From: Candidatus Zhuqueibacterota bacterium | GTDB lineage: Bacteria > Zhuqueibacterota > Zhuqueibacteria > Thermofontimicrobiales > Thermofontimicrobiaceae | Reading direction: 5' to 3' | Assembly: GCA_049322915.1 (NCBI GenBank) | Contig: JBMOPW010000010.1 | Coordinates: 1 to 64,000, forward strand | Length of the DNA stretch: 64,000 nt | Shown here: one piece after another, positions 23,817 through 62,415 of the stretch | Layout: each line of letters opens with the position of its first letter | Position numbering within the stretch: position 1 is the first letter of the stretch | Made by a program: the position numbers and the translations under genes | The notes under the pieces: generated by a model | Databases searched by the model: none | What the model was told of the DNA's origin: nothing | The model's input: only the letters and a program-made list of their open reading frames with translations

Positions 23817-24743
23817 TGAAAATTTAAGGGAGAACGGGAAATGGGTTGGTTCATACAAGCGATTGCCCAACTCACTGCGGTGAAACGGGCAGGGCGACCC
23901 GGCGAACGGATACAAAAAAAAGACATGCAGCATGAACCGGGCGACGTGTCGCGCCGAGCCAATCCCTTTTCTGTTACTCCGGAAGGCGCGTGGCGCCTGG
24001 ATCAACTCTCGCCGGGAGGCTGATGGAACCATTGCTTGTAGTTTGTATCCAGCGATCACTGGATATTTCTGCTTTTAAAACACGCTCAATTACTTTTCTT
24101 AACGCCACGAAGTGGTGCGCGCTCGATTTTTCATCGAGAAAAGGACGCCAAAACAACTCTAACTTGCATCATTGTCAATTGTCCAATCATTGATCTGAGT
24201 AGCAGCGCATCGGAAGAGCTTGAGACGAAATCGTCGAACCAGGGGGGTGAGCGGAATCGCACGCGCCATTGATCCTGGAATAGCTCCTGAGCCGAGTTCA
24301 ACCTGATTTTCTGTCAGGTTGTCATCATTCCGACGGGAAAAACCCTCGTCTCAATCGGCTGGTACATAGCAGGGCAGCATCATTGGGCGACGCTGCTTTC
24401 AAATCGACTCCCCGGCGGAGCGCGGGTATTCAGGGATGCGATGGTCGAAATGCGGCTCAGCCGGCGCGGTGATCGTTAATCCTTTGCAGAATTTTTTCGA
24501 TTTCACATCGTCAGACTGAGATTGCATGAGGTAGATGATGGGGTCAAATTGAAGGCTGAACTTAATAGAAATTAAATAAATAAAAAGTGTTAATCTGGCC
24601 GAAAAATTTTACGCATTTCTTACTAAATGTGGTATTTAAATATGGCCTACTCAACAATTCATAGAAATGAATCCGCATCGACCAGAAAAAAGTACGAATG
24701 CCGGCACTGGAAAAATTAATGAAGAGCAGAGGTTTTCTCGAAT

Positions 24744-31211: not shown

Positions 31212-31284
31212 TCCAGATGTTTGTTGGGGGAATTTAAATTCATAGTTATAAACTCGGTTGTTGATTCTAAAGGAGGAATCGAAT

Positions 31285-33054
31285 ATGGACTCGGACAGGC
31301 GATCGACGGATGTCTATGAACAGATCGATGGGTATACCAAACCGCCGATCGTACCACTTCCGGCTACGGATGATATTGATTCCCTGAAGTATCTGGGCCT
31401 CACCATCAATGACACGTCGAGACGCATTGTCAACGCGGTGAAGGTGCTGACTGGCTTTCGTTCTTTTGAAACGAATTTGCCCAACACCATTGAGCATCAT
31501 CTCAGGAAAAATAATATGCGGCTGCCGGGATTGTTCGCGCCGGCGATTTCAGCGACGCTGGTTTTAGCCGATGATGCACGAATCGCTAACCCATTGGAAC
31601 GAGCTGCCACATTGATTTTTTCCGTTCGGAATCTGTGCGACGATATTTTTAGCGGGAAATTTTCCCAGGATCAATTTCGCGACCAGGGATTGGAAATGGG
31701 GCAATATCCAAATCTCTTTTCGACAAGTGTGGTGGTCTCAGGGAAAGATGTGCAGGTCTATAAAAGCACACAGAAAAATACGATCGCTGTGATCGTGGCT
31801 GGAAAATTCTACGGCCTGAATCTCGGCAATTTGACGAGCATCGGGCAAGTGAGCAAAACATTGTCCGAAATCGTGCAGAGCGCTCATGCGAACAAAGCCA
31901 GGGCAGACTATGTCTCCCCGGGCCCACTGACAGCGGCGACAAATATCACCCAGCAAAATATTTTCGGACGGCTGAGCAGGAATGAAGTCAATGCAGCATC
32001 ATTGGCAATGCTGCGCAACAGCCTGTTCACGCTGTGCCTTGAAATTGAAAGTACGCCATCGACCTACTCGGACGTGGCGATTCGCGCGCAGAGCAATAAT
32101 TACCAGAATCGCTGGTTTCATTCCGCCCTGCAAATTGTCGTTTTTGGCAATGCCAAAGCCGCCGCGATCTGTAATTTCACGGTCTATGTGGATGGCAATA
32201 CCATGATGCGGTCCGCCGCAGAGATTCAAAAACGAGCCGCGCAGGTTTCGTTGCACAGCACCATTGAGACCAGCGAGCCATCGCCGATCTCCGTGAAACA
32301 GATGGACTGGCAGGTCAATCGCGAAGCGGTGCGCCGCGCGTATCGCGATATCAGGATGATTCTGGATAATCAGCAGGCGACCTTTGAAATTCCCAATATC
32401 GGCCGGAAATATTTTGATGAACACCAGACCGACGCCGTGCCGGCGTTCATTCTGGCGCTTCAGTTGGCCATGCATCGGATGACCGGGAAATGGGTGAAGA
32501 TCGAGCAATTCCTGGCCATGTCGAAATACCGCTGCATGGATTTGACCACGACGACGGTGACGACGCCGGAAGTGGTTCAGTTCGGCGAACTGATGGAAAA
32601 CGGACGAATGGATGTTCAGGAATCCCTGAGCGCCCTGAATGCCGCGATTGTCTCTCAAAACGACCAGGCGCGTGCAGCCCGAAGTCAATTGAGATTGGGC
32701 ATCATCTTCACATTGTACCAGCGTTCTTTGAGCGCATCAAAAAAGGCTTATGTCAGAATCATCGTTCTCGTGGCTGCTGTCCTGTTGCGGATTCTTGGTC
32801 TGATTAAAATGCCGCCCGGGAATGATGTGATTGTATCCCATCCGGAAATTTATCCGGAAATCCCGGTGGTCGGTCGACCCGGCATTCGGTTACCGTATGT
32901 GAAATATCTGGGGTTGCATTACCAGATTTTCGATGAAAAGACAATTATCACGCTCATGCCGGGTGTGAGCTGGCACATCCCCAACACAGAATTCATTTAC
33001 ACATTGCGCAAGAGCCTTGAGAGCGTGCAATGGGTTCTGCGCCACAAAGAATAG
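31285..33054 (+). CDS. Choline/carnitine O-acyltransferase-family-like protein, catalytic His apparently absent
   Basis: Family-like motifs MGQY.NLFST, GKFY, LFTLCLE, NRWF..LQIVV, GRKYF, ALQLA.HR.TG. Strong RBS AAGGAGG precedes ATG 31285 (the ORF track starts at TTG 31258). Confidence 0.75.
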   Translation: MDSDRRSTDVYEQIDGYTKPPIVPLPATDDIDSLKYLGLTINDTSRRIVNAVKVLTGFRSFETNLPNTIEHHLRKNNMRLPGLFAPAISATLVLADDARIANPLERAATLIFSVRNLCDDIFSGKFSQDQFRDQGLEMGQYPNLFSTSVVVSGKDVQVYKSTQKNTIAVIVAGKFYGLNLGNLTSIGQVSKTLSEIVQSAHANKARADYVSPGPLTAATNITQQNIFGRLSRNEVNAASLAMLRNSLFTLCLEIESTPSTYSDVAIRAQSNNYQNRWFHSALQIVVFGNAKAAAICNFTVYVDGNTMMRSAAEIQKRAAQVSLHSTIETSEPSPISVKQMDWQVNREAVRRAYRDIRMILDNQQATFEIPNIGRKYFDEHQTDAVPAFILALQLAMHRMTGKWVKIEQFLAMSKYRCMDLTTTTVTTPEVVQFGELMENGRMDVQESLSALNAAIVSQNDQARAARSQLRLGIIFTLYQRSLSASKKAYVRIIVLVAAVLLRILGLIKMPPGNDVIVSHPEIYPEIPVVGRPGIRLPYVKYLGLHYQIFDEKTIITLMPGVSWHIPNTEFIYTLRKSLESVQWVLRHKE

Positions 33055-33119
33055 CGTAGCGTCACCCTTGATAAACCTGATCTCGAACGAACATTATTTT
33101 CAAATTTCAGAAAGTGACT

Positions 33120-36100
33120 ATGAGCGATTACTCAAAAATGATAGCATCGCTATCCCCGGAAAAACGAGCATTATTTGAAGCGCGGTTGAAGAAAAAGGGA
33201 AGCATGTACAACTCGTTCCCGGTTTCATTTTCCCAACAACGATTATGGTTCCTGGATCAGTTGGAGCCGGGAAATTCAATTTATAATATCCCGTCCGCAG
33301 TGCGATTATCCGGTGAATTGGATGTCGCCGCGTTGAAGCGGAGCGTTCACGAGTTGGTACGTCGTCATGAAATTTTGCGCACCACGTTCATGAGTGTGAA
33401 TGGCGAGCCCATGCAGATGGTGGCGCCTTCACGGCAACAGGACATGCCCATCATCGATCTGTCGCAGATGGACGAACCGCACCGCGACGCGATGATTCAG
33501 CGGCTGGCAGTGGAAGAGGCGGAGCGACCCTTCGATTTAGGCCGCGGCCCACTCCTGCGGACGTCCCTGATTCGGCTGAGCGATACCGAACACATCGCGC
33601 TGTACACTATGCACCACATCATCTCGGACGGCTGGTCCATGGGCGTGCTCATCCGCGAGATTGCTATTTTGTACGATGCCTATTCCAATAATCGGCCATC
33701 GCCGTTGCCTGATTTGCCCCTTCAGTACGCCGATTTCGCCAAATGGCAGCGACAGTGGCAGCAGGGCGAGGTGATCGAAAAGCAGCTCGACTACTGGAAG
33801 CAGCAACTCGGCGATACACCGCCGGTCCTGGAATTGCCGACTGACAGAACGCGCCCGGCAGAACAGACTTCTTCCGGCGCTGATGTGTCATTCAAATTTT
33901 CCCGCGAATTGAGCGAGCGACTGAACGACGTGAGCCGCAGAAACAGCGTGACGCTGTTCATGACGCTGCTGGCCGGATTCCAGACCCTGTTGCATCGCTA
34001 CACCCAGCAGGACGATATCGCAGTCGGCTCCCCCATTGCCAATCGAACCCGCGCCGAAACCGAAGCGCTGATCGGCTTTTTTGTCAATACATTGGTCCTG
34101 CGCAGCGATTTGTCCGGCAATCCCACGTTCAAACAGTTATTGGCGCGAGTCAGAGAAACCACGCTGGGCGCTTACGCCAATCAGGATGTGCCCTTTGAAA
34201 AACTGGTGGAAGTATTGCAGCCGGATCGCGATTTGAGCCATACACCGCTGTTTCAGGTGATGTTCATTCTTCAAAATACGCCCGTGGGCGCCTCGGAATT
34301 GCCGACCCTGTCCATGCACCCGTTGAAAATTGAAAGCCGGTCTTCCGAGTTCGACATCACGCTGTCCATGAACGAAGATCCGGAGGGACTGAGCGGCGCG
34401 TTGCAGTACAACAGCGATTTATTCAACGCCGAAACCATGTCGCGGATGCTCGTGCATTTTCAGATGCTGCTGGAACATGTCGCCATCAATCCGGATGCGA
34501 AGTTGTCGGACATTTCACTGGTTCCGGCGGCCGAGCGCCATCAACTTCTGCACGAGTGGAATGATACGAAACAGCCGTTGCCGGAGATGGCGTGCATTCA
34601 TCGCCTGTTTGAACAGACCGTAGAATCCGCGCCGGGCGCTGTGGCCGTGATGCGCGGGGACGACGTGATGACCTACCGGGAATTGAACGCGCGAGCCAAC
34701 CAATGCGCGCGCTATCTGCGCCGCCTCGGCGTTGGCGCTGATTCACTGGTGGGCATCAATCTGGATCGCTCGTTCGAGATGATCGTCGGCTTGATGGGCA
34801 TTTTGAAGGCCGGCGCCGGCTACGTGCCGCTCGATCCCAATTACCCGGCCGATCGATTGGAGTTCATGATCCGCGACGCCAGACTCTCGGTGATTCTCAC
34901 CAGACAGGCGCTCGCCGAATCGTTGCCATCCAATCAGGCGACCATTGTCCGGCTGGATTCCGACTGGAATGCGATTGCGGCGGAAAGCATGGAGAATGCG
35001 CAGGTATCGGTCGATCCGAAAAACATTGCCTACGTGATCTATACGTCCGGCTCCACCGGCAAACCCAAAGGCGTGGTCATCACGCATCAGTCCGTGGTCA
35101 ATCACAATCTGGCAGTGACCCGGTTATTCGAATTGACGCCGGCCGATCGCGTCCTGCAATTTGCTTCCATCAATTTTGATGCAGCAGTGGAAGAGATATT
35201 CCCGACGTTGCTGCGCGGCGCTGCCGTGGTCATACGGGATGGAAATGGCGTATTGCCCTCCGGAGCGGAATTGCAGAGCATGGTTCGAAAATACAACATC
35301 ACCGTTCTGGATTTGCCTACGGCCTACTGGCACGAATGGGTGTACGAACAGTCCCTGCTGAATGAGACTGCGCCGGACTCCCTGCGGCTGGTCATTGTCG
35401 GCGGCGATAAAGCCTCTGCCGAGAAGTTAATCGCTTGGCGTCGCAGCACATCTGGCCGGGTTGCCTGGATCAATACCTATGGCCCGACCGAAGCCACGGT
35501 CATTGCCACGGCGTTTGAACTGAAAAAAGATGCCGGCGATTGGGACAGCCAGGTCGAATTGCCCATCGGTTCTCCCATTCAGAATACAACGACCTACATT
35601 TTGGATTCGCATCTTCAGCCAGCGCCGGTGGGAATTCCCGGCGAGCTGTACATTGGCGGTCTGTGTCTGGCGCGCGGCTACCTGGATCGCCCCGAATTGA
35701 CTGCCGAGAAATTCATCCCGGATCCGTTCGGCGAAATTCCCGGCGCGCGGATGTACCGAACCGGGGATCTGGTTCGCTACCGGCCGGATGGCCAAATTGA
35801 GTTCATCGGTCGCGCTGATTTTCAGGTGAAAATACGCGGCTTCCGCGTGGAACTGGGCGAAGTGGAATCCGCGTTGCTGCGGCATCCGTCGGTTCGGGAA
35901 ACCATTGTCATCGTCCGCGAGGAGGCGCCGGGCGATAAACGCATGGTGGCATATTGCGCCCTGACGCCGGATGCGGCGTTGTCCGCGACGGATGTGCGCA
36001 ATTATCTGGCTGGCATATTACCGGAGTACATGGTGCCGACCGCTGTGGTGCTGCTGGAATCATTGCCCAAAACGCCAAACGGGAAAATCGACCGGCGGGC

Positions 36101-39100
36101 ATTGCCTTCGCCGGAATTTGGCCGCCCGGAATTGGAGTCCGTCTTCGTGGCGCCGAGAACGCCAGCCGAGGAATTGATCGCCGATATCTGGTCCCAGGTG
36201 CTCCATGTCCGGAAAGTGGGCGCCTTCGATAGCTTTTTCGAACTCGGCGGCCATTCGCTTCTGGCCACGCAGGTTGTGTCGCGGGTGCGCGATGTGTTCC
36301 AGGTAGAACTGCCATTGCGCAGTCTGTTCGAAAGCCCGACCGTGGCGGCGTTTGCGCAGCACATCGAACAGGCGAAAATGGCCGAAAAGGGCATTCAGGC
36401 GCCGCCCATCAGGAAAACCTCGCGGCAGCAGCCATCGCCACTCTCCTTTGCCCAGCAGCGATTGTGGTTCATGGATCAACTGGAGCCCGGCAGCGCCATG
36501 TACAACATCCCGGATGCAGTTCGACTGACCGGCGCGCTGAATGTGGATGCGCTTCAGCAGAGCCTCCGTGAAATTGTCCGTCGACATGAAATTTTGCGGA
36601 CCTCGTTTCAGACCGTGGACGGAAAAGCCACTCAGGTGATTGCTGATTCGCTGGAACTGGATTTCCCGATGATCGACCTCAGCGATCTGCCGGAGACCAT
36701 GCGCGAAGAAGAAGCCCTGAGATTGATTTTGGCCGAAGCGAAAAAGCCGTTCGATCTGGGCAAAGCGCCCATGCTGCGTACACTGCTGATCCGCCTGAGC
36801 GCCGGGGAGCATATCATTCTGCTCACCATGCATCACGTCGCGTCGGACGGCTGGTCCACCGGCGTTCTGATTCGCGAGGTGGCTGCGTTGTACGATGCGT
36901 TCTCCCACGGTCAGTCAAGCCCATTGCCGGAACTGGCGATTCATTACGCCGACTACGCTTCCTGGCAGCGCAATTGGCTCAAAGATGATGTGCTGGAAGT
37001 AGAATTGGATTACTGGAAAAAGCTGCTCAGCGATCGTCCGACGATATTGGAATTGCCCACGGATTTTTCCCGTCCGGCAGTTCAAACCTCCAATGGAGAT
37101 CACATCACCTTCACGCTGACCAAAGAATTGTCCAATCGGTTGAATGACATCAGCCGCAAGCAGGGCGCCACGCCATTCATGACGCTGTTGGCGGCGTTTC
37201 AGACGCTGCTCCATCGGTACACCGGCCAGCAGCATATCAACGTGGGAACGCCGATTGCCAATCGCACCCGCAGCGAAGCAGAGTCGCTGATCGGATTTTT
37301 TGTCAATACGCTGGTGCTGCATGCTGATTTTTCGCAGGGCATCAGTTTCAATAAATTGTTGCGGCAAGTGCGGGAAACGACTCTGGGCGCGTATGCGCAT
37401 CAGGATGTGCCCTTCGAAAAAATCGTGGATGCCATTCAGCCGGAGCGGGACATGAGCCGAACGCCGTTGTTCCAGGCCATGTTCATTTTACAAAACACGC
37501 CCAAACAATCGCTCGTGCTGGAAGGTCTGCGATTGGAAGCGATTGAACTGGACACTAAGCTTTCGACCTTTGACATCACCCTGTCGCTGGGGGAGACCGA
37601 GGCTGGGTACGCCGGCGCCATGGAATTCAACACGGATTTGTTCCGGCCGTCCACGATTCATCGGATGATTGCCCATTTCAAAAATCTCCTGCAGAGCCTG
37701 AGCGTCCAGCCGGACCTGTCTGTTTTGCGCCTGCCAATTCTCGATGAAATTGAACAGCAGCGAATACTAGTTGAATGGAATAAAACGGACGCAGCATTTC
37801 CGGATGGCGCCTGTTACCATGAATTGTTCCAAAAGCAAGTTGAGAAGACGCCGTCAGCCATTGCGCTCATTTCCGGGAATGGCGAATTGACCTACAGCGA
37901 GCTGAACGAACGCGCCAACCAATTGGCGCATCATCTGCGGAAGATCGGCGTGGGGCCGGAGAAGCTGGTCGGCATGTGCATCGAACGATCCCCGGAAATG
38001 ATCATCGGATTGCTGGCCATTCTCAAAGCAGGTGGCGGATACGTGCCGCTGGATCCTGATTATCCGGAAGAGCGGTTGACCTACATGATGACAGATTCGA
38101 AGCTATCGCATCTGCTCACCAAAAGCCATCTGGCCGCCTCATTGCCCACGCGCAACATGCACGTCATTCGTCTGGACACCGACTGGGAGCTGATTTCCCG
38201 CGAAGTGTCCACGTCAGTGATGAGCGGAGTTGCGCCGGACAATGTCGCGTACGTCATTTACACATCCGGTTCCACCGGCAAACCCAAGGGCGTGATGATC
38301 TCTCACCGGTCAGTCGTCAACCACAATTTTGCTGTGATGAACGAATTTCAGCTCACGAACCAGGATCGTGTGCTGCAATTTGCATCGATCAATTTCGATG
38401 CGGCTGTGGAAGAAATATTCCCGACTTTGTTGTGCGGCGCCACGCTGGTGCTGCGCAACAGCGATGGGGGACTCACTTCCGGCGCAGAATTACTTGAGTT
38501 GATTCGTTCGAAAAATCTGACCATGCTCGATCTGCCGACAGCGTACTGGCATGAGTGGGTCTATGAAATGACATTGCTGGAAGAGAAAATGCCATCTTCG
38601 CTGCGCCTTGTGATTGTGGGCGGAGATAAAGCCTCGCCGGAGCGACTGGCCGCCTGGCAACGCGTGGCCGGAAAGCAAGTGCGACTGCTCAATACCTACG
38701 GCCCCACTGAGGGAACAATCATTGCAACATCATTCGACCCCAATAACGAGCGCAATCCCTGGCAGCCCGGAACCGATCTGCCCATCGGCGCGCCAATCGC
38801 CAATCTCAAGACCTATGTGTTGGATGCGGCGTTACAGCCTGTGCCGGTCGGCGTCGCCGGTGAGTTGCACATCGGCGGTGCCGGCGTGGCACGCGGATAC
38901 CTTAACCGGCCGGACTTAACTGCCGATAAATTTATACCGGATCCGCACAGCAATGCGCCGGGCGCCCGTCTGTACAAAACAGGCGACCTGGTTCGTTATC
39001 GGGAAAATGGGGATATTGAATTCGTTGGGCGCGTGGATCACCAGGTCAAAATACGCGGCTTCCGCGTTGAACTCAGTGAAATCGAGTCGGTGCTGGAACG

Positions 39101-41390
39101 GCATCCGTCCCTGCGGGAAGTGGTCGTTGTAGCCCGCGAAGACGCCCAGGGTGCGAAAAAATTAGTGGCCTATTGTGTTGCCGGAAACAAGAATGAAGCT
39201 GATTCCAAAGAACAGCGCCGGCACGAGCGAGTGCCGTTCCTCAGTGAAGTCACCATCAAATTGAATGGCGATGAAAAGGCGCTCTTCAAAACCGAAGATA
39301 TTTCACCGGGCGGAGCGCGATTGCTGACCATCTCGCCCATTCCAAACTGGCAGGCGATTCAGCAGGCGCGCATGGCCATGAAGCTGCCCATTGCGCCGCA
39401 GCAAATTCATTTCAACAGCGACCTGATCTGGCAGGAAAATGGCCGCATCGGCATTGCCTTCCGCGATATGAGTCTGGACAATAAGACGCTGATCGATGAA
39501 ACGATTATTCGGCTCAAAGAGAATCAATTCGTGCTGATGAACGAGCTGCGCAATTTCCTCAAAGACAATTTGCCGGAATACATGGTGCCGTCCGCGTTCG
39601 TTATTCTGGAACGCTTGCCCCGAACTCCCAGCGGGAAAATCGACCGGAAAGCGCTGCCGGAACCGAATCAGGAGCGGGTTGAGTCCAGCAGCGCCTATGT
39701 TGAAGCGCGCGATGAAGTGGAAGAAAGCCTGACAAAAATCTGGAGCCAGGTTCTCGGCATCGGGAAAATCGGCGTCAACGATAACTTCTTTGAATTGGGC
39801 GGCGATTCCATTCTGAGCATTCAGGTCATTGCCCAGGCCAACAAAGCCGGCATTCGCCTGACGCCCAAGCAACTTTTTGAGCAGCCGACCATCGCCGGGC
39901 TGGCTTCTGTGGCTGGAAAGGGACAGGCTGTGTTTGCCGAGCAGGGCGAAGTGACTGGCGAGGTCCCGTTGACTCCAATCCAAAAATGGTTCTTCGATTT
40001 GAAACTGCCGGAATCGCATCACTGGAATCAGTCGGTGCTCTTTGAGATAGAACAGCATCTCAAACCGAACGCGCTCAGGATGGTCATTAAGAGCGTGATC
40101 GAACATCACGATGCGCTGCGATTCCGTTACGCCGGGCTGAATGATGCGATCAGGCAGCATATCGCGGCGAACGAAGAATCTGTGCCGTTCTCTATTGTCG
40201 ACTTGTCCGCGCTGCCGGAGACTGAATTGCAACGCGCTATTGAATCCGTTGCCGCGTCGGTTCAGCAGAGCCTGAATCTGGAATTCGGGCCAATCATTCG
40301 CGCGGCGCTGTTCCATCTGGGTGACAGCAAACCGCAACGGCTGCTCATTGTGGCGCATCACCTGGCCATCGACGGGGTGAGTTGGAGAATCCTGCTCGAA
40401 GACGTGATGACGTCGTATCAGCAATTTGAACGACTCGGCAGAATTCAGTTGCCGCAGAAAACAACCTCGTTCAAGTACTGGGCGGAGCAACTGTCGCGCC
40501 ATGCCCGGACGCCGGAATTGGAAAAGGAACTGGAGTACTGGCTGGAAATTGGCAAGCAACCCATTGCACCGCTGAAGACCGATTTCACTGCCGGAAAGAA
40601 CACCGAAGCCTCTGCCGGCAACATCGCTGTATCGCTGACCGAAGCGGAGACAAAGAAGCTATTGAAGGACGTGCCGGCTGTCTATCGGACGCAGATCAAT
40701 GATATTCTGTTGACGGCGCTGGCGCAGACATTCGGCGGCTGGATGAACTCCCGCAGTGTGCTGGTGGAGATGGAGGGACATGGCCGCGAGGACCTGTTCG
40801 GAAACGTGGATATCTCCCGAACCCTCGGCTGGTTCACCACGGTCTACCCTGTGCTGCTGAATCTGGGCGTGAGCCGGTCCATTGGCGACGAGATAAAAAA
40901 CATCAAAGAACAATTGCGAAAACTGCCGAATCACGGAATTGGATTCGGGCTGTTGAAATACATGGCTGAGAAGAGCGAAGTGACCAGCGCGCTTCGGACG
41001 TTGCCGGAGCCGCAGATCAGCTTCAACTATTTGGGACAATTCGATCAGGCCGGGACGAATGCCGGCGCTTTCAAAGGGGCGAAAGAATCCAGCGGGCCGG
41101 ATCATAGCCCAATGGGGGAGCGGAGCCATTTCATCGAGATCAATGGCAGTGTGGCCGGTTCCCGGTTGCAACTGGACTGGACCTACAGCGAAAATATTCA
41201 TGCGCGCGCCACGATCGAGCGGCTGGCGTATGATTTCATCGCCAGGTTGAAGGCCATCATCGCGCACTGCGAGAATCCCAATGCGGGCGGCGTGACGCCT
41301 TCGGATTTTCCATTGGCCAATCTCAAGCAGAAAGATCTCAATAAGGTGCTGAACAAGCTTAACAAAACCAAGGAAAAACGTGCATTATGA
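33120..41390 (+). CDS. NRPS: C-A-PCP-C-A[PilZ insert]-PCP-E (modules 7-8; Lys, D-Lys)
   Basis: C: HHIISDG and HHVASDG. A codes DAEDIGTVIK and DAEDIGTIIK. PCPs: GGHSL and GGDSI. E: HHLAIDGVSW, EGHGRE. About 110 extra aa between A8 and A9 of the second A domain. Alternative start GTG 33114. Confidence 0.95.
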   Translation: MSDYSKMIASLSPEKRALFEARLKKKGSMYNSFPVSFSQQRLWFLDQLEPGNSIYNIPSAVRLSGELDVAALKRSVHELVRRHEILRTTFMSVNGEPMQMVAPSRQQDMPIIDLSQMDEPHRDAMIQRLAVEEAERPFDLGRGPLLRTSLIRLSDTEHIALYTMHHIISDGWSMGVLIREIAILYDAYSNNRPSPLPDLPLQYADFAKWQRQWQQGEVIEKQLDYWKQQLGDTPPVLELPTDRTRPAEQTSSGADVSFKFSRELSERLNDVSRRNSVTLFMTLLAGFQTLLHRYTQQDDIAVGSPIANRTRAETEALIGFFVNTLVLRSDLSGNPTFKQLLARVRETTLGAYANQDVPFEKLVEVLQPDRDLSHTPLFQVMFILQNTPVGASELPTLSMHPLKIESRSSEFDITLSMNEDPEGLSGALQYNSDLFNAETMSRMLVHFQMLLEHVAINPDAKLSDISLVPAAERHQLLHEWNDTKQPLPEMACIHRLFEQTVESAPGAVAVMRGDDVMTYRELNARANQCARYLRRLGVGADSLVGINLDRSFEMIVGLMGILKAGAGYVPLDPNYPADRLEFMIRDARLSVILTRQALAESLPSNQATIVRLDSDWNAIAAESMENAQVSVDPKNIAYVIYTSGSTGKPKGVVITHQSVVNHNLAVTRLFELTPADRVLQFASINFDAAVEEIFPTLLRGAAVVIRDGNGVLPSGAELQSMVRKYNITVLDLPTAYWHEWVYEQSLLNETAPDSLRLVIVGGDKASAEKLIAWRRSTSGRVAWINTYGPTEATVIATAFELKKDAGDWDSQVELPIGSPIQNTTTYILDSHLQPAPVGIPGELYIGGLCLARGYLDRPELTAEKFIPDPFGEIPGARMYRTGDLVRYRPDGQIEFIGRADFQVKIRGFRVELGEVESALLRHPSVRETIVIVREEAPGDKRMVAYCALTPDAALSATDVRNYLAGILPEYMVPTAVVLLESLPKTPNGKIDRRALPSPEFGRPELESVFVAPRTPAEELIADIWSQVLHVRKVGAFDSFFELGGHSLLATQVVSRVRDVFQVELPLRSLFESPTVAAFAQHIEQAKMAEKGIQAPPIRKTSRQQPSPLSFAQQRLWFMDQLEPGSAMYNIPDAVRLTGALNVDALQQSLREIVRRHEILRTSFQTVDGKATQVIADSLELDFPMIDLSDLPETMREEEALRLILAEAKKPFDLGKAPMLRTLLIRLSAGEHIILLTMHHVASDGWSTGVLIREVAALYDAFSHGQSSPLPELAIHYADYASWQRNWLKDDVLEVELDYWKKLLSDRPTILELPTDFSRPAVQTSNGDHITFTLTKELSNRLNDISRKQGATPFMTLLAAFQTLLHRYTGQQHINVGTPIANRTRSEAESLIGFFVNTLVLHADFSQGISFNKLLRQVRETTLGAYAHQDVPFEKIVDAIQPERDMSRTPLFQAMFILQNTPKQSLVLEGLRLEAIELDTKLSTFDITLSLGETEAGYAGAMEFNTDLFRPSTIHRMIAHFKNLLQSLSVQPDLSVLRLPILDEIEQQRILVEWNKTDAAFPDGACYHELFQKQVEKTPSAIALISGNGELTYSELNERANQLAHHLRKIGVGPEKLVGMCIERSPEMIIGLLAILKAGGGYVPLDPDYPEERLTYMMTDSKLSHLLTKSHLAASLPTRNMHVIRLDTDWELISREVSTSVMSGVAPDNVAYVIYTSGSTGKPKGVMISHRSVVNHNFAVMNEFQLTNQDRVLQFASINFDAAVEEIFPTLLCGATLVLRNSDGGLTSGAELLELIRSKNLTMLDLPTAYWHEWVYEMTLLEEKMPSSLRLVIVGGDKASPERLAAWQRVAGKQVRLLNTYGPTEGTIIATSFDPNNERNPWQPGTDLPIGAPIANLKTYVLDAALQPVPVGVAGELHIGGAGVARGYLNRPDLTADKFIPDPHSNAPGARLYKTGDLVRYRENGDIEFVGRVDHQVKIRGFRVELSEIESVLERHPSLREVVVVAREDAQGAKKLVAYCVAGNKNEADSKEQRRHERVPFLSEVTIKLNGDEKALFKTEDISPGGARLLTISPIPNWQAIQQARMAMKLPIAPQQIHFNSDLIWQENGRIGIAFRDMSLDNKTLIDETIIRLKENQFVLMNELRNFLKDNLPEYMVPSAFVILERLPRTPSGKIDRKALPEPNQERVESSSAYVEARDEVEESLTKIWSQVLGIGKIGVNDNFFELGGDSILSIQVIAQANKAGIRLTPKQLFEQPTIAGLASVAGKGQAVFAEQGEVTGEVPLTPIQKWFFDLKLPESHHWNQSVLFEIEQHLKPNALRMVIKSVIEHHDALRFRYAGLNDAIRQHIAANEESVPFSIVDLSALPETELQRAIESVAASVQQSLNLEFGPIIRAALFHLGDSKPQRLLIVAHHLAIDGVSWRILLEDVMTSYQQFERLGRIQLPQKTTSFKYWAEQLSRHARTPELEKELEYWLEIGKQPIAPLKTDFTAGKNTEASAGNIAVSLTEAETKKLLKDVPAVYRTQINDILLTALAQTFGGWMNSRSVLVEMEGHGREDLFGNVDISRTLGWFTTVYPVLLNLGVSRSIGDEIKNIKEQLRKLPNHGIGFGLLKYMAEKSEVTSALRTLPEPQISFNYLGQFDQAGTNAGAFKGAKESSGPDHSPMGERSHFIEINGSVAGSRLQLDWTYSENIHARATIERLAYDFIARLKAIIAHCENPNAGGVTPSDFPLANLKQKDLNKVLNKLNKTKEKRAL
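39210..39515 (+). other. PilZ (c-di-GMP-binding) domain inserted in the adenylation domain
   Basis: EQRRHERVP (RxxxR, 39216-39230), EDISPGGARL (DxSxxG, 39297-39314), W....IGIAF strand and a terminal helix. Length about 100 aa. Confidence 0.88.
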
Positions 41391-44300
41391 GTATGGAGAA
41401 CATTGAGGATATCTATCCGCTTTCACCCATGCAGCAGGGAATGCTATTTCATAGTATTTATGCGCCAGAATCCGGTGAATACATTGAACAGATGAGTTGC
41501 AAAATAGACGGACAGTTAGATGTCACGGCATTTGAACGGGCATGGCAGGAGGTATTGAACCGACATACAATTTTACGAACGGCTTTTGTGTGGGAAGACC
41601 TGGATGAACCTTTGCAGGTGGTTCAGTCCGGACTGGAACTGAAAGTGAATCAATTGGGTTGGCGCACAATGGCCGAGGCTGAAATTGCCGAACGCCTGCA
41701 CCAGTTCCTCGAAACCGACCGCAAACAAGGCTTTGATCTGTCAGAAGCGCCGTTGATGCGCGTGACGCTGATTCAACGGTCGGATGATGTTTTTCAATTT
41801 GTGTGGACGCATCATCATCTGTTATTGGATGGATGGTCGGTGCCTCTGTTGCTTGGGGAAGTCTTCGCGTTCTACGATGGATTTCATACCGGTCAGCCGG
41901 TGAATCGCGCAACCAGCCGACCGTATCGCGATTACATCGCCTGGTTGCAGCAGCAGGATCTGTCCCGGGCAGAGGCCTACTGGCGCGAACGACTGAGCGG
42001 ATTCGTCGCTCCCACCAGTCCGGCGCTGGACGTTCGCTCCGATGGCCCGGAATCCGATGAAGACTATTGTCTGGAGCAGGACAGGCTCTCCGAGACGGTG
42101 ACAGATGCGCTTCAGAATTTATCGCGGACGCACCAGATCACGCTGAATACGTTCATGCAGGGCGCCTGGGCGCTGCTGCTGAGCCATTACAGCGGGGAAG
42201 ATGACGTGGTGTTCGGGATGACCGTCTCCGGCCGACCGCCGGAACTGCTGGACTCGGTCAGCATGCTGGGTATCTTCATCAACACGCTGCCAATTCGCGC
42301 ACTGGTGACGCCGGAGTCGAAGCTGCTGCCGTGGTTGAATGAGTTGCAGAAACAGCAGAGCGAGCTGCGCCAGTTCGAATACAGCGCCCTGACACAGATT
42401 CAGGGGTGGAGCCAGGTGCCGCGCGAACTGCCTCTGTTCGAAAGCATTTTCGTCTTTGAAAATTATCCGGTGGAAGAAGCGATGAAGGAGGACAACTCCA
42501 GCGTCCATATCACGGACGTGGAATCGTTCACCCGGACCAATTTGCCAATCACGGTCTCGGTTTCGCCCGGGAAACGGGTGGGCATTGAAATTTTATACGA
42601 CCACACGCGATTCAGCACCGCGGCCATCAAACGGCTGATGGGTCACATGAAGCATCTGCTGGGCGAAATGGCAGCCAATCCCAATCGCGCGCTATCCAGC
42701 CTGTCCGTTTTGACGGACGCTGAGAAAAAGCAGCTTCTGGTGGACTGGAATAATACAGATACAAAGCTGCCTGACGTGCAGTGCGTTCACCAATGGATCG
42801 AGCAGCAGGTGGAAAAAACTCCCAACGCCATCGCGGTGACCTGTTCCGGGGAGCATCTGACCTATCAGGAATTGAATGAAAGAGCCAATCAATTGGCGCA
42901 CTACCTGATCGGTCTGGGCGTTGGCCCGGAGGTGATGGTCGGAGTGATGATGGAACATTCGCTCGGCATGATGGTCGGGCTCCTGGGAATCCTCAAAGCC
43001 AGCGGCGCGTACGTGCCCATGGATCCGTATTATCCCAAAGATCGCATTGAATATATTTTGACTGATTCGCGAATCCCTGTGCTATTGACCCAGCGGAAAC
43101 TGCTGGAACTATTGCCGGAAACAGGCGTGCGAATTTTGCAACTGGACGAAGAGTGGGACTCCGTGAGCCGGGAAGCACGAACATCACCAGCCGTTTCCGT
43201 GAACCGCGAAAACCTGGTCTATATGATTTACACGTCCGGCTCGACTGGCAAACCCAAGGGAACGTTGATCACTCACCGCGGTCTGATCAATTATTTGCAC
43301 TGGTGCCTGGCCAATTACCCCATCGAGGCCGGAAGCGGCTCTCTGGTTCATTCATCCCTGGCATTCGACGCAACGGTGACCGGGCTGTTTGCGCCGCTTC
43401 TCACCGGCCGCACTGTCACCCTGGTGTCCGAGACAAAGGACGTCGAGATTTTGAGCAGCATGTTGCAGTCGACGGACAATTACAGTCTCATCAAAATTAC
43501 GCCGGCGCATCTGGAATTATTGGGCCAGCAACTGGAAGCGGACGCAGCAAAGGACAAAACCCGGGCATTCATCATTGGCGGTGAAAATCTCACCTCTGAG
43601 CATATCGAGTTCTGGAAAAAGCATGCCCCGGAGACCCGGTTGATCAACGAATACGGCCCCACGGAGACCGTTGTCGGGTGTATGAATTACGTCGCTGATC
43701 CGCGGAACGGGCGCCGCGGTTCCATTCCCATTGGATACCCGATCTGCAACACGAAAATCTACCTGCTGGACTCGCAGTTACAGCCGGTCCCGATCGGCGT
43801 TCCTGGCGAGCTGTATATTGGCGGTGAAGGCGTGGCGCGCGGTTATCACAATCGCCCGGACCTCACAGCAGCGCGGTTCATCCCTTCTCCGTTCAGCAAC
43901 AAGCCCGGCGCGCGGTTGTACCGGAGCGGCGATCTGGCGCGTTATCTGGGAAATGGGAATATCGAGTTTCTAGGTCGAATCGACCATCAGGTGAAGATTC
44001 GCGGCTTCCGCATCGAATTGGGTGAAATCGAGGAAAATCTGAACCAGCATCCGGCCGTTCAGAATGCTGTGGCGCTGGTGCGGGAAGACAAACCCGGGGA
44101 CAAGCGACTGGTCGCGTATTTTGTGCCCAATCGGAGCGCCGAAGCATCGCCGTCGACGAACGAATTGCGCGACTTCCTCGCCGCGAGATTGCCGCATTAC
44201 ATGATTCCTAATTTCTTCGTGATGCTGGAAAACATGCCGCTCACTTCCAATGGAAAAGTGAACCGCAAAGCGCTGCCGGCGCCGGAGCTGGATCGTTCCG

Positions 44301-47300
44301 GCGGTATGGAATTTATCGCGCCGCGCACACCGACCGAAGAACTGATGGCGCAAATCTGGGCCGAAGTTCTGGGAATCGAACAGGTCGGCATTTACGATAA
44401 CTTTTTCGAATTGGGCGGTCATTCGCTCATCGGTATGAAATTGCAAAGCCGCGTCCAGGATGCCTTCCAGATGAAGTTGCCGTTGAGCAGCATTTTCCAG
44501 GCGCCGACGGTGGCTGAATTGGCGCAGCGCATTGACAGCGAAAAGACAACCGCGGCGCGCACCGATGCGCCGCCCATCGTCCCGGTCAGCAGAGACCAGC
44601 AGTTGCCGTTGTCCTTTGCCCAGCATCGGCTGTGGTTCCTCGATCAATTGGAGCCGAACAGCGCGTTTTACAATATCCCCACAGCGTTGCGCTTCAAAGG
44701 AAAATTGAATGTCCCGGCGCTGGAAAAAAGTTTCGCCGGGATCATCACCCGGCACGAGTCGCTGCGCACGACGTTTCAGGCATTCGATGGAAAACCATTC
44801 CAGGTGATTGCAGCGGAACTGCCGCCTCCTGTCGAGCACATCGATTTTCGTCATCATCCGGAATCCGAGAAAGAGGATCTCCTTCACAAGTTGGTGTACA
44901 AAGAAGCGCAGACGCCGTTCGATCTGAGCGCCGGTCCGCTGGTGCGCATGAAAATCGCTCAGTTGAGCGAGGATGAATTTGCCATCCTGGTCACCATGCA
45001 TCACATCATTTCGGATGGCTGGTCCATCACTGTCTTCATTCAGGAAATGGCCGCGCTCTACGAGGCGTTCAGCGCCGGGGGCGAATCGCCGCTGCCGTCG
45101 CTTACTATCCAATATCCTGATTTCGCACACTGGCAGCGACAATGGCTGCAAGGGGCTGTGCTGGATGCGCAGATTTCCTTCTGGAAAGAACAACTGGCCG
45201 GGTGCCCGCCGATTCTGGAATTGCCAACGGATCGTCCGCGGCCGGCCGTGCAAAGCTTCAATGGCGCCACGCTCAGTCAATTCCTGTCCGGCGCAACTCT
45301 CGATGCATTGAAAAAACTGAGCAGGGAACAAGGCTGCACCCTGTTCATCACGCTGCTGGCAGCGTTCAAAACATTGCTGCACCGCTACAGCGGCCAGACC
45401 GATATTTGCGTGGGAACGCCCATTGCCAGTCGCAACAATGTGGAAACTGAAAAGCTGATTGGCTTCTTCGTCAACACGCTGGTGATGCGATCCGACCTGT
45501 CAGACGATCCTACATTCCTGGAATTCATGCGCCACGTGCGCGAGACTGCGCTGGACGCCTACGCCCATCAGGATGTGCCATTCGAGACTGTTGTGGAAGC
45601 AGTTCAGCCGGAGCGCAACATGAGCCATTCGCCGTTATTCCAGGTGATGTTCGTGCTCCAGGAAGCGCGAAAGGCCAGCATGGAACTGTCTGATGTAACC
45701 ATCACTGCGCTGCAAACCGACAGCGGCAATGCGAAATTCGATTTGACCCTGGAAGTGCTGGAAGGCGCTGATCAGATGGAATTGTCGTTCGAATACAATA
45801 CCGATTTATTCAATGCCGAGACCATTGAACGTATGGCCGCGCATTTTGCTCATCTGGTGGAATCCATCGTCGCCGATCCGGAGCAGCGGCTCTCAGCGCT
45901 GCCGATTTTATCCGAAGCTGAGAAACACCGCATGTTGATCGAGTGGAACCAAACAGCCGCAGCGTATCCGGATCAGAGCTGCGTTCACGAGGTATTCCAG
46001 CAACTGGCCGGGACCAATCCCGATGCCGTTGCAGCAACCTACGAAGCCGCGTCGCTGACCTACGGGGAACTGAATAAGAAAGCCAATCAATTGGCGCGCA
46101 ATCTGCTGGCCAGCGGACTGAAGCCCGAACAGTTCGTGGGCATTTGCATGGAACGGTCGCTAGATATGGTGGTCGGCATTCTGGCCACGTTGAAAGCCGG
46201 CGGTGCGTTTGTGCCGCTCGATCCGGCCTATCCCTCGGAACGGCTGGCGTACATGATTTCGGATTCCCGGTTGACCATTTTACTGAGCCAGGAAAGGCTC
46301 AAACCTGCGCTGCCAGAGAATAGCGCCCGCACAATTTTTCTGGACAGCCAAGGCGCGGAGGTCTTTCAGGGCGACGATTCGAATGTGAACCTCCCCATTG
46401 TCCCGGAAAATCTGGCCTACATGATTTATACATCCGGTTCCACCGGCAAACCCAAAGGAACCATGTTGCAGCACCGCGGTATGTGCAATCTGGCCCAAGC
46501 CCAGCAACGGGCATTCGATGTCACGATTGGCAGCCGCATCTTACAATTCTCGTCGCTGAGTTTCGATGCATCCGTCTGGGAAACCGTGATGGCGTTGCTG
46601 AACGGCAGCACGCTCTGCCTCACCCAGCGCGAACATCTGGCTTCAGGCCAGGCGTTGTGGCAGGTGCTGCGCGAAGAGAAAATCAACACTGTGACGCTGC
46701 CGCCGTCCGTCGCTGTCATTATCCCGGACGAGCCCCTGCCGGATTTGAAAGTCATCATTACGGCAGGCGAAAAATGCACGGCGGAGCTGGTTTCAAAATG
46801 GTCGAATAATGGCAGAAAATTTTTCAACGCCTATGGCCCAACGGAAACAACCGTGTGCGCTTCCATGCTGCACGTTGCCAGGCATTATCGCCAGGGCCCG
46901 CCCATTGGACGGCCGATTCACAATTTCCAGCTCTACATTCTCGATCCGAAATTGAATCCGACGCCGGTCGGCGTGGCCGGGGAATTGCACATCGGCGGTG
47001 TGGGATTGGCGCGCGGTTATTTCAATCGGCCGGATTTGACAGCCGAAAAATTTATCGCGGATCCTTTCAACAGGACTCCCGGTGCGCGGATGTACAAGAG
47101 CGGCGATCTGGCGCGCTTCCTGCCTGATGGCAATATCGAATTCCTGGGTCGAATCGATCACCAGGTGAAAGTCCGCGGCTTCCGCATTGAATTGGGTGAA
47201 ATAGAAGCGGTCCTCGCCGCCCATCCGGACATCACCGATGTGGTTGTGCTGGTGCGGGAAGATATGCCCGGGGACAAGCGGCTGGTGGCCTATCTCGTCG

Positions 47301-47800
47301 TTGGCCAGGGCAAAGACCTGACCGTCGGCGATTTGCGAGGCTACCTGCGCGAGCGGCTGCCGGATTATATGATTCCTTCAGCATTCATGATTTTGAATGA
47401 ATTCCCATTGACGCCCAATGGCAAAGTCGACCGCAAAGCGCTGCCGGCTCCGGACCAGTCCCGTCCGGAATTAGGCAGCGAATATGTCGCGCCGGGCACG
47501 GAGCACGAGATAAAGCTAGCGGCTATTGTCGCGGAATTGCTCAAAGTGGAAAAAGTGGGCATACATGATAATTTCTTTGATCTGGGCGGGCATTCGCTTC
47601 TGGCCACGCAATTCATCTCCCGAACGCGGGATGCGTTCCAGGTGGAATTGCCTCTGCGAAGCCTGTTCGAAAAACCGACCGTCGCCGGTCTGGTCGAAGA
47701 AATTGAGAAGGTCAAATTAGCCGGGCCGGTGCAGGCTGGACCATCGATTAAGCGGGTGGCTCGGGACGCGCATCGCGTGAAACTATCGGAATTGAACTGA
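41387..47800 (+). CDS. NRPS: C(DCL)-A-PCP-C-A-PCP (modules 9-10; Asn, Phe)
   Basis: IEDIYPLSPMQQGML and HHLLLDGWS. A codes DATKIGEVGK (Asn-type) and DAWTIAAVCK (Phe). ATGA overlap with the upstream gene. Confidence 0.95.
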   Translation: MSMENIEDIYPLSPMQQGMLFHSIYAPESGEYIEQMSCKIDGQLDVTAFERAWQEVLNRHTILRTAFVWEDLDEPLQVVQSGLELKVNQLGWRTMAEAEIAERLHQFLETDRKQGFDLSEAPLMRVTLIQRSDDVFQFVWTHHHLLLDGWSVPLLLGEVFAFYDGFHTGQPVNRATSRPYRDYIAWLQQQDLSRAEAYWRERLSGFVAPTSPALDVRSDGPESDEDYCLEQDRLSETVTDALQNLSRTHQITLNTFMQGAWALLLSHYSGEDDVVFGMTVSGRPPELLDSVSMLGIFINTLPIRALVTPESKLLPWLNELQKQQSELRQFEYSALTQIQGWSQVPRELPLFESIFVFENYPVEEAMKEDNSSVHITDVESFTRTNLPITVSVSPGKRVGIEILYDHTRFSTAAIKRLMGHMKHLLGEMAANPNRALSSLSVLTDAEKKQLLVDWNNTDTKLPDVQCVHQWIEQQVEKTPNAIAVTCSGEHLTYQELNERANQLAHYLIGLGVGPEVMVGVMMEHSLGMMVGLLGILKASGAYVPMDPYYPKDRIEYILTDSRIPVLLTQRKLLELLPETGVRILQLDEEWDSVSREARTSPAVSVNRENLVYMIYTSGSTGKPKGTLITHRGLINYLHWCLANYPIEAGSGSLVHSSLAFDATVTGLFAPLLTGRTVTLVSETKDVEILSSMLQSTDNYSLIKITPAHLELLGQQLEADAAKDKTRAFIIGGENLTSEHIEFWKKHAPETRLINEYGPTETVVGCMNYVADPRNGRRGSIPIGYPICNTKIYLLDSQLQPVPIGVPGELYIGGEGVARGYHNRPDLTAARFIPSPFSNKPGARLYRSGDLARYLGNGNIEFLGRIDHQVKIRGFRIELGEIEENLNQHPAVQNAVALVREDKPGDKRLVAYFVPNRSAEASPSTNELRDFLAARLPHYMIPNFFVMLENMPLTSNGKVNRKALPAPELDRSGGMEFIAPRTPTEELMAQIWAEVLGIEQVGIYDNFFELGGHSLIGMKLQSRVQDAFQMKLPLSSIFQAPTVAELAQRIDSEKTTAARTDAPPIVPVSRDQQLPLSFAQHRLWFLDQLEPNSAFYNIPTALRFKGKLNVPALEKSFAGIITRHESLRTTFQAFDGKPFQVIAAELPPPVEHIDFRHHPESEKEDLLHKLVYKEAQTPFDLSAGPLVRMKIAQLSEDEFAILVTMHHIISDGWSITVFIQEMAALYEAFSAGGESPLPSLTIQYPDFAHWQRQWLQGAVLDAQISFWKEQLAGCPPILELPTDRPRPAVQSFNGATLSQFLSGATLDALKKLSREQGCTLFITLLAAFKTLLHRYSGQTDICVGTPIASRNNVETEKLIGFFVNTLVMRSDLSDDPTFLEFMRHVRETALDAYAHQDVPFETVVEAVQPERNMSHSPLFQVMFVLQEARKASMELSDVTITALQTDSGNAKFDLTLEVLEGADQMELSFEYNTDLFNAETIERMAAHFAHLVESIVADPEQRLSALPILSEAEKHRMLIEWNQTAAAYPDQSCVHEVFQQLAGTNPDAVAATYEAASLTYGELNKKANQLARNLLASGLKPEQFVGICMERSLDMVVGILATLKAGGAFVPLDPAYPSERLAYMISDSRLTILLSQERLKPALPENSARTIFLDSQGAEVFQGDDSNVNLPIVPENLAYMIYTSGSTGKPKGTMLQHRGMCNLAQAQQRAFDVTIGSRILQFSSLSFDASVWETVMALLNGSTLCLTQREHLASGQALWQVLREEKINTVTLPPSVAVIIPDEPLPDLKVIITAGEKCTAELVSKWSNNGRKFFNAYGPTETTVCASMLHVARHYRQGPPIGRPIHNFQLYILDPKLNPTPVGVAGELHIGGVGLARGYFNRPDLTAEKFIADPFNRTPGARMYKSGDLARFLPDGNIEFLGRIDHQVKVRGFRIELGEIEAVLAAHPDITDVVVLVREDMPGDKRLVAYLVVGQGKDLTVGDLRGYLRERLPDYMIPSAFMILNEFPLTPNGKVDRKALPAPDQSRPELGSEYVAPGTEHEIKLAAIVAELLKVEKVGIHDNFFDLGGHSLLATQFISRTRDAFQVELPLRSLFEKPTVAGLVEEIEKVKLAGPVQAGPSIKRVARDAHRVKLSELN

Positions 47801-61619: not shown

Positions 61620-62362
61620 GCCTTGCTCAAAATGTCTGGAAGACGCCTCCTGAAAATTTGATCCTTGAAAATTCGGAGGCGCATGTCTGGAAAGTGCTGC
61701 TCAACAGATCAGACTCGCAGATTGACCGGTTGAAGACTGTCCTTTTGCCGGACGAACATACCCGGGCCGGGCGTTTTTATTTTCAAAAAGACAGGGATGC
61801 ATTCACCATCGCCAGAGGGATGCTGAGGATTATCTTGAGCCGCTATGTGCGCTTTGAACCCAATGAATTGGCGTTTGATTATTCATCATACGGCAAACCC
61901 TCTCTTCAGGCGCGGTTCAATGCAAACATGCTGCAATTCAACCTGTCCCATTCTCATCACATTGCCCTGATCGCAGTGTGCTGGCAGCACGAAATCGGCG
62001 TGGATGTGGAATGGATGCGCGATACCCTGTCTGACATGCAGATTGCAGAGAGATTTTTTTCGCCGGCGGAAGTGGCGGCGCTTCTAACCGTACCGCCGGC
62101 CGAGCAGAAGGGGGCTTTTTTTAATTGCTGGACCAGAAAGGAAGCGTTCATCAAGGCCAAAGGCATGGGCCTCTCCATTCCGCTGGATCAATTTGATGTG
62201 TCGCTGAAACCGGGTGAACCGGCCGTCCTGCAGCAAACCGGTTTCGAGCCGGACGAAGCCTGTAAATGGGCAATGATCGATGTCCCGCTGGAGAGCGACT
62301 ATCGCGCGGCGCTGGCGATTTCGAGAACGATAACACGAATTACATATTGGCAAGCAGCCTGA
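61616..62362 (+). CDS. Sfp-type 4'-phosphopantetheinyl transferase
   Basis: GKP, FNLSHS, IGVDVE, WTRKEAFIKAKG. GTGA overlap with TEII. Confidence 0.95.
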   Translation: MSLAQNVWKTPPENLILENSEAHVWKVLLNRSDSQIDRLKTVLLPDEHTRAGRFYFQKDRDAFTIARGMLRIILSRYVRFEPNELAFDYSSYGKPSLQARFNANMLQFNLSHSHHIALIAVCWQHEIGVDVEWMRDTLSDMQIAERFFSPAEVAALLTVPPAEQKGAFFNCWTRKEAFIKAKGMGLSIPLDQFDVSLKPGEPAVLQQTGFEPDEACKWAMIDVPLESDYRAALAISRTITRITYWQAA

Positions 62363-62415
62363 GATTGCGACAATTGAAGTCGAGTTTTTCACAGAAACGG
62401 AAAAGGGAACCTGTC

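Follow-up and report, generated by a model that had tools for sequence, protein, structure and literature searches.

Adenylation (A) domains of nonribosomal peptide synthetases (NRPSs) can be interrupted by a foreign domain, and the inserts described in a 2020 census and a 2024 review are methyltransferases, ketoreductases, oxidases, or monooxygenases, all of them catalytic tailoring domains (PMC8341866, PMC11355689). Those interrupted between core motifs a8 and a9 (A-M-A arrangement) include KtzH, McyA, and PchF, grouped into families in the census by Lundy, Mori, and Garneau-Tsodikova (PMC8341866). The A domain analyzed here lies in a 64,000-nucleotide stretch of DNA (the window; positions 1 to 64,000 of the forward strand of contig JBMOPW010000010.1, hereafter C10) from Candidatus Zhuqueibacterota bacterium. 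It is the eighth A domain of a hybrid polyketide synthase (PKS)-NRPS cluster and carries a PilZ domain of the type that binds cyclic di-GMP (c-di-GMP). As in the known a8-a9 interrupted A domains, a foreign domain occupies the same loop of the mobile subdomain (Asub) and the A-domain motifs are all kept; here, in contrast, the insert is a small noncatalytic ligand-binding barrel.

A PilZ-interrupted A domain is an interrupted A domain in which a sensor replaces the catalytic insert, and no description of one was found in the literature. The words PilZ and c-di-GMP are absent from the main text of the 2020 census (PMC8341866), and PilZ is likewise absent from the main text of the 2024 review (PMC11355689). 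A term search of a PilZ survey preprint (10.1101/814665) gave no occurrence of nonribosomal, adenylation, AMP-binding, synthetase, or polyketide. Full-text literature searches for PilZ in an NRPS returned no description either, the word being merely the name of an author in those retrieved papers that were checked for it, in agreement with a first-pass annotation of the DNA, made from the letters alone, whose author knew of no characterized example.

Among PilZ proteins, the closest is MapZ/PA4608 (5xly, 5y4r, and 2l74), the best match by profile (1.8e-11) and by fold (template modeling [TM] score, 0.74), with aligned motifs and a barrel and C-terminal helix like those of the insert. Whereas MapZ (125 aa) is a protein on its own, acting on CheR1 in trans, the insert is nested covalently in its presumed target, and the two share 19% identity. 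In BcsA and Alg44, both among the top fold and profile matches, PilZ is likewise attached to a polymer-making enzyme, but there it is terminal in a membrane glycosyltransferase complex and here it is internal in a soluble adenylate-forming enzyme. Binding of c-di-GMP to BcsA and Alg44 releases an autoinhibited state. Other PilZ-interrupted A domains, found in the database search described below and including single and tandem forms from cyanobacteria, have one, two, or three PilZ domains at the same junction; those tandem forms that keep the full motif have it mostly in the second PilZ, whereas the window has a single PilZ with full RxxxR.

Position of the insert and state of the host A domain

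The translation of positions 39000-39800 reads ...KKLVAYC VAGNKNEADSKEQRRHERVPF...TEDISPGGARL...LIWQENGRIGIAFRDMS...TLIDETIIRLKENQFVLMN ELRNFLKDNLPEYMVP...SGKIDRK, with the insert following the LVAYC strand of Asub and preceding its ELRNFL helix. The first-pass annotation had placed it at this site with a length of 122 aa; the site is correct and the length counted is 123 aa. The paralogous A domains of modules 7 and 11 (at 35808 and 50591) do have 11 aa at the same place, as it had stated. The distance from motif A8 to motif A9 is 181 aa in the eighth A domain versus 70 to 73 aa in the seven other A domains that match the A9 pattern, and three more, whose A9 has a different first residue, are normally spaced by eye or have an A8-A10 distance of 90. 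This comparison covered 11 A domains, two more having escaped the A8 pattern. In the eighth A domain, A8 lies at nucleotide 39027 and A10 201 aa further on; the extra length is about 112 aa. The coordinates of the insert, its host gene, and the surrounding cluster are given in Table 1.

The flanking motifs A8 (GRVDHQVKIRG), A9 (LPEYMVP), and A10 (SGKIDRK) are intact, as first read, both in the translation and in an alignment of 18 A domains, and the columns invariant over this alignment (A3, A4, A5, A7, A8, A9, and A10) are all retained. Judged by these residues, the host A domain looks catalytically intact. Host core motifs kept around a foreign domain between a8 and a9 assign it to the a8-a9 interrupted type; an embedded catalytic tailoring domain (methyltransferase, ketoreductase, oxidase, or monooxygenase) was not found, PilZ being the sole family on the insert. 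The variable linker that opens the insert has a proportion of nonsynonymous differences (pN) of 0.31, versus 0.094 in the PilZ core.

Table 1. Features of the PilZ-interrupted adenylation domain, its gene, and the cluster in the window (KS, ketosynthase; AT, acyltransferase; ACP, acyl carrier protein; KR, ketoreductase; C, condensation; T, thiolation, that is, peptidyl carrier protein [PCP]; E, epimerization; ORF, open reading frame; pLDDT, predicted local distance difference test)
Feature	Position (nt)	Strand	Basis or remark
Insert, 123 aa, between LVAYC strand and ELRNFL helix of Asub	39177..39545	+	Translation, A-domain spacing, alignment with uninterrupted paralogs
Variable linker VAGNKNEADSKEQ	39177..39215	+	Alignment; pLDDT <50 together with RRH in full A-domain model
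PilZ domain per PF07238	39210..39500	+	Profile positions 1-98 of 102
RxxxR motif (RRHER)	39216..39230	+	Both Arg invariant in 8/8 family inserts
DxSxxG motif (DISPGG)	39297..39314	+	S and G invariant; D in 7/8, E in 1/8
C-terminal helix of PilZ domain	39474..39539	+	Near-direct run into the Asub helix preceding A9
Interrupted adenylation domain (eighth of cluster)	37827..39647	+	AMP-binding start to motif A10
Core motif A8 (GRVDHQVKIRG)	39027..39059	+	
Core motif A9 (LPEYMVP)	39570..39590	+	
Core motif A10 (SGKIDR) with catalytic Lys	39630..39647	+	
PCP serine motif, same module as the insert	39786..39812	+	Pattern at residue 2236, stop-to-stop frame; Pfam PP-binding x2
Epimerization-type condensation-family domain after PCP	39975..41387	+	PIQxWF-type pattern at 2299, HHxxxDG at 2426, third Condensation stretch
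NRPS gene, 2758 aa, C-A-T-C-A(PilZ)-T-E	33114..41390	+	ORF list, Pfam, motif map
KS-AT-ACP-C-A-T	210-6638	+	
KS-AT-KR-ACP	6635-11296	+	
C-A-T	11361-14765	+	
C-A-T-sulfotransferase-C-A-T-E	14865-23816	+	
Two C-A-T modules	24744-31211	+	
Carnitine/choline-acyltransferase-family gene	31258-33054	+	
Further gene of cluster	41387-47800	+	
Gene with thioesterase at end	47954-58366	+	
Major facilitator superfamily transporter, type II thioesterase, phosphopantetheinyl transferase, free sulfotransferase	Downstream of 58366		

Identification of the insert as a PilZ domain

On the insert alone, the Pfam profile PF07238 scored 46.7 bits (E, 4.2e-12; cut-off, 22.5), so that the profile check proposed in the first-pass annotation came out in its favor; the same profile scored 40.5 bits on the whole host ORF and 47 bits in a scan of the genome. 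No other ORF of the window contained PilZ according to Pfam, and a chance match is excluded because of this absence and the E value of PF07238. NCBIfam models gave only TIGR02266, a PilZ-paralog model, with 15.9 bits against a cut-off of 68.7. The motifs RRHER and DISPGG stand in PilZ order and at PilZ spacing, 27 residues apart from start to start, as had been noticed from the letters.

A structural model of the insert was predicted by AlphaFold2 from an alignment in which it was joined by seven relatives and 31 stand-alone PilZ proteins. The model reached a mean pLDDT of 88.8 and showed six strands followed by a long C-terminal helix (residues 91-112). In a Foldseek search of the PDB with this model, ranks 1 to 45, those listed, were all PilZ structures, mostly complexes with c-di-GMP, and the matches included MapZ/PA4608 (5xly; E, 2.4e-6), BcsA, Alg44, MotI, YcgR, PlzA, and MrkH, which bears out the fold expected from the motifs. 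The profile match to PA4608/MapZ given above was obtained with the insert and the stand-alone PilZ proteins together. Profile score, barrel with helix, RxxxR, and [D/N]xSxxG were all found, as in PilZ domains of the c-di-GMP-binding type. The insert is thereby confirmed as a PilZ domain by its hidden Markov model (HMM) score, its fold, and both c-di-GMP motifs.

The full A domain with its insert was modeled at a pLDDT of 82.4. The sole long low-confidence stretch, below 50, was residues 473-483 (NEADSKEQRRH), made up of the linker and the RRH that opens RxxxR. Directly after the helix of PilZ (residues 567-582) comes a helix (584-598) that contains ELRNFL of Asub.

Conservation of the insert in related genomes

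Of the 13 other genomes of the family, 5, belonging to four further genera and the same genus, had this insert at the identical site, and none of 47 genomes sampled from the wider order and class had it. In all six genomes, the window's own included, it is in frame within open frames of 1260-2893 aa. The orthologous gene is organized as C-A-T-C-A(PilZ)-T-E in the window's genome (G000), G001, and G009 and as C-A(PilZ)-T-C-A(PilZ)-T-E in G008 and G013, and the copy in G007 ends at a contig end. A search for relatives with the six closer rows gave eight loci, namely, four close relatives and four weak partial matches (L013-L016).

The eight family inserts are 27-80% identical to that of the window, and the residues invariant in all eight include R14, H16, R18, P20, F21, S43, G46, A47, R48, W85, G92, and F95. 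Between G000 and G001, the ratio of nonsynonymous to synonymous substitution rates (dN/dS) was 0.075 in the PilZ core, 0.075 in the A domain upstream, and 0.121 downstream, values that are approximate because the synonymous rate is 1.3-2.0, near saturation, and a single pair is compared. The insert is under purifying selection as strong as that on the catalytic domain.

The sister genus to which G008 and G013 belong has PilZ in both A domains of the gene (L018, 585-9194 in G008, and L019, 4650-13328 in G013). Its first-module PilZ is closer to the window's insert than the other copy (49% versus 32%), which hints at exchange between paralogous A domains.

The first-pass annotation had allowed for a chimeric assembly, and this did not hold up. 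A contig of 17,784 nucleotides assembled by a second pipeline, from a run that may be this DNA's own source, is free of differences over the whole of 38600-40100, and a short contig (266 nucleotides) from a different study extends across the 3' junction (39426-39691) with 6 differences. Runs X2-X4 cover parts of the stretch only, and no RNA sequencing run carrying it was among the runs listed. The GC content is 52.0% in the insert versus 54.4% in the window. The sole setting that could favor an artifact is the assembly itself, with 45 contigs and a window that begins at a contig end, and no positive evidence for one was found. The in-frame presence in six genomes, the spanning contigs, the GC content, and the dN/dS of the PilZ core exclude, to near certainty, both a chimeric assembly and a recently inserted piece of junk DNA.

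PilZ inserts in other lineages

A profile of the eight family inserts had 705 matches at E ≤ 0.001 among 1.84 billion representative proteins. Flanking A-domain sequence was scored by two HMMs, one built from the alignment upstream of the insert and one from the alignment downstream. Of the 150 best representatives, 38 had PilZ, singly or in tandem, flanked by A-domain sequence on one side or both. The A-domain parts were separated by about 109-115 aa where one PilZ lay between them, by 209-241 aa in the case of two, and by 307 aa in P0003, which has three. Pfam gave AMP-binding, PilZ, and PP-binding together in 20 of 25 proteins scanned from the best 150. The named carriers were cyanobacterial (P0002 Microcoleus, P0015 Laspinema, and P0067 Pantanalinema). 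The single protein P0018 contains three A domains interrupted at this junction, one of them by a 426-aa methyltransferase and the other two by PilZ; because the inserts share it, the site is the classical a8-a9 interruption site, the usual place of tailoring domains, as the first-pass annotation had proposed.

The binding signature was counted with the canonically spaced pattern RxxxR-(20-25)-[D/N/E]xSxxG. It was present in all 8 inserts of the window's family, 31 of 33 stand-alone PilZ matches, and 19 of 23 multi-PilZ inserts, mostly in the second PilZ, and, among the single inserts of other lineages, in P0019 alone (1 of 17). The remaining 16 read like NLIPE-R-VP, with the second Arg only, and the linker of the window's lineage is about 11 aa longer on the N-terminal side and bears RxxxR. 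By this census (8/8 versus 1/17), the lineage is unusual in having a single insert with a complete signature.

A tree was built from 104 PilZ rows. These comprised the eight inserts of the family, embedded matches that covered 70 or more profile positions, and stand-alone matches of up to 180 aa with one PilZ; other PilZ matches were excluded. The window's family fell outside a clade with 97% support that holds 62 other embedded domains. In the approximately unbiased (AU) test, one clade of all 71 embedded rows was not rejected (p 0.867), the constrained tree even gaining 25 log-likelihood units. Independent acquisition in the window's lineage was considered and dropped, and no separate origin is claimed, since the AU test does not reject one clade.

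c-di-GMP machinery of the genome

The genome (6.25 Mb, 45 contigs, 96% complete) encodes four GGDEF domains with GGEEF and the RxxD I-site, plus two degenerate ones, and five HD_5 (HD-GYP-type) matches, identified by profile. A search of the same genome for EAL domains gave none. Going by the motifs of the four cyclases, the genome can make c-di-GMP, and the five HD_5 profile matches would supply the capacity to degrade it. The two degenerate GGDEF-like matches (C14:101970-102284 and C39:33923-34300) lack the GGDEF motif and could serve as receptors.

The insert is the only PilZ domain in the genome by PF07238, and a second, custom-built HMM found only the insert at E ≤ 10 among 40,178 six-frame ORFs. 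A stand-alone PilZ frame of 217-241 aa occurs in 6 of the 12 other family genomes, with one more below threshold, and none was found in the window's genus (G000 and G001).

Proposed control of the module and alternative readings

With its complete signature and predicted fold, the insert probably binds c-di-GMP. In solved PilZ proteins, the arm carrying RxxxR lacks order until c-di-GMP binds, when it closes around the ligand. In A domains, Asub swings 140 degrees between the adenylation and thiolation states. In the proposed mechanism, RxxxR sits on the flexible linker between the Asub strand (LVAYC) and the barrel, and this linker would act as one tether, and the C-terminal PilZ helix, near-continuous with the Asub helix before A9, would be a second tether and a rigid mount. 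Binding of c-di-GMP would tighten one tether of this rigidly mounted barrel and re-set the position of the barrel on Asub, because the RxxxR arm is one of its two connections and the helix the other. The swing of Asub or the docking of the PCP would then be altered, and the flux through the module, hence through the whole lipopeptide line, could rise or fall, either direction being compatible with this arrangement. The evidence suggests that the signal acts directly on the enzyme. Gating of the A domain by c-di-GMP, which the first-pass annotation had put forward, is plausible on the features of the protein, and in its view such gating could tie the product to the sessile or biofilm state. Its interpretation as a whole is partly supported, namely, in the identity and site of the insert, the seemingly intact A domain, and the capacity of the genome to make c-di-GMP. 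That the insert is a functional c-di-GMP-binding-type PilZ domain directly controlling its NRPS module via Asub is our tentative reading, which we hold at slightly less than an even chance.

Several observations weigh against this reading. When the profile of the eight family inserts alone was compared with solved structures, no match reached E ≤ 0.01; PA4608 was on top at an E value of 0.25, with RRHxR aligned on RRFHR and DlSegG on DVSLHG. Within the full-domain model, confidence in the PilZ part is modest (block means, 56-82). One of the eight family inserts, L008, has E for D/N in DxSxxG, and the dN/dS estimates carry the uncertainty stated above. No GGDEF, EAL, or HD_5 gene is present in the 64-kb window or on contig C10. 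Canonically spaced RxxxR is lacking in 16 of 17 single inserts of other lineages; the general role of such inserts may therefore be independent of ligand, and a ligand-independent role may be the common denominator of the design.

This last observation also favors a reading in which the window's insert is itself blind to ligand, a PilZ-fold spacer or interaction surface from a mobile A-domain cassette, its motifs kept for folding or for another ligand. The single inserts without RxxxR are retained nonetheless, and one origin of all 71 embedded rows is not rejected, so that the window's insert may be one branch among them. The invariance of both Arg, Ser, and Gly in the window's lineage despite 27-80% identity speaks against this reading, as do the same signature in the multi-PilZ inserts and the stand-alone matches and the equally strong purifying selection on insert and catalytic domain; we regard it as quite unlikely. 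We give somewhat more weight to a reading, still unlikely, in which PilZ binds c-di-GMP without gating catalysis and acts as a ligand-dependent handle for docking, oligomerization, or localization. Two synthetase subunits could be bridged by an intercalated c-di-GMP dimer, or a partner could be recruited in trans in the manner of MapZ and CheR1. The PilZ motifs and fold fit this equally, MapZ bound to CheR1 (5xly and 5y4r) is the top structural match, tandem and triple PilZ inserts occur elsewhere, and according to the 2024 review the a8-a9 loop accepts large foreign domains with adenylation kept (PMC11355689). No partner candidate, however, was found by Pfam among 12 large and 7 small ORFs of the window. 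The results fit the docking handle and direct gating alike.

Direct gating, if true, would place a ligand sensor in the moving part of an A domain and so add a new level to the control of NRPS output, for which transcription is considered the main point of control. c-di-GMP signaling would likewise gain a new class of effectors, and engineers of small-molecule-switchable assembly lines would have a natural template. The broader proposal, that c-di-GMP is a direct posttranslational switch of the NRPS line and that PilZ-interrupted A domains form a widespread new effector class, the first regulatory class of interrupted A domains, is possible but doubtful on the sequences compared. The sulfated lipopeptide line would then rank as a principal PilZ-type output of c-di-GMP signaling in this uncultured lineage, because the insert is the only PilZ found in its genome. 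The locus is a clean case, with a single PilZ that has the full binding signature and with insert-free paralogous A domains in the same cluster as built-in controls, and the natural relatives elsewhere that lack the first Arg offer a comparison for ligand dependence.

Host gene and surrounding cluster

The cluster of the window is a PKS-NRPS hybrid encoded on the forward strand. In the host gene, Pfam found three Condensation, two AMP-binding, and two PP-binding stretches and one PilZ, the AMP-binding match of the eighth A domain covering residues 1572-1930. The domain after the PCP is presumably an E rather than a C domain, an assignment made from motifs only; its PIQxWF and HHxxxDG patterns fit the D configuration in the earlier proposal that the module loads D-Lys. 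Pfam families on the 12 large ORFs of the window were biosynthetic, transporter, thioesterase, phosphopantetheinyl transferase, and sulfotransferase families only, and 7 small ORFs in the cluster gaps had no Pfam family. No regulator family was found among these 19 ORFs, in line with the first impression that the window shows no transcriptional regulator.

An in-line sulfotransferase domain (PF13469; E, 1.6e-23) occupies residues 1149-1364 of the product of the gene at 14865-23816, after the first PCP and ahead of the next C domain, and the window has a free sulfotransferase gene as well (62266-63495). The two suggest that the predicted product of the cluster is a sulfated lipopeptide.

The start of the window is an end of contig C10, with the first PKS gene beginning at 210, and the cluster may have a loading or acyl-activating gene beyond that end. 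The gap of about 930 bases between two NRPS genes (23816-24744) contains short ORFs only, three of which were scanned and had no Pfam family, and could be the site of an internal promoter or a small RNA. The choline/carnitine O-acyltransferase family gene (PF00755; E, 2.5e-40) immediately upstream of the host gene stands amid NRPS genes and is unusual in such clusters.

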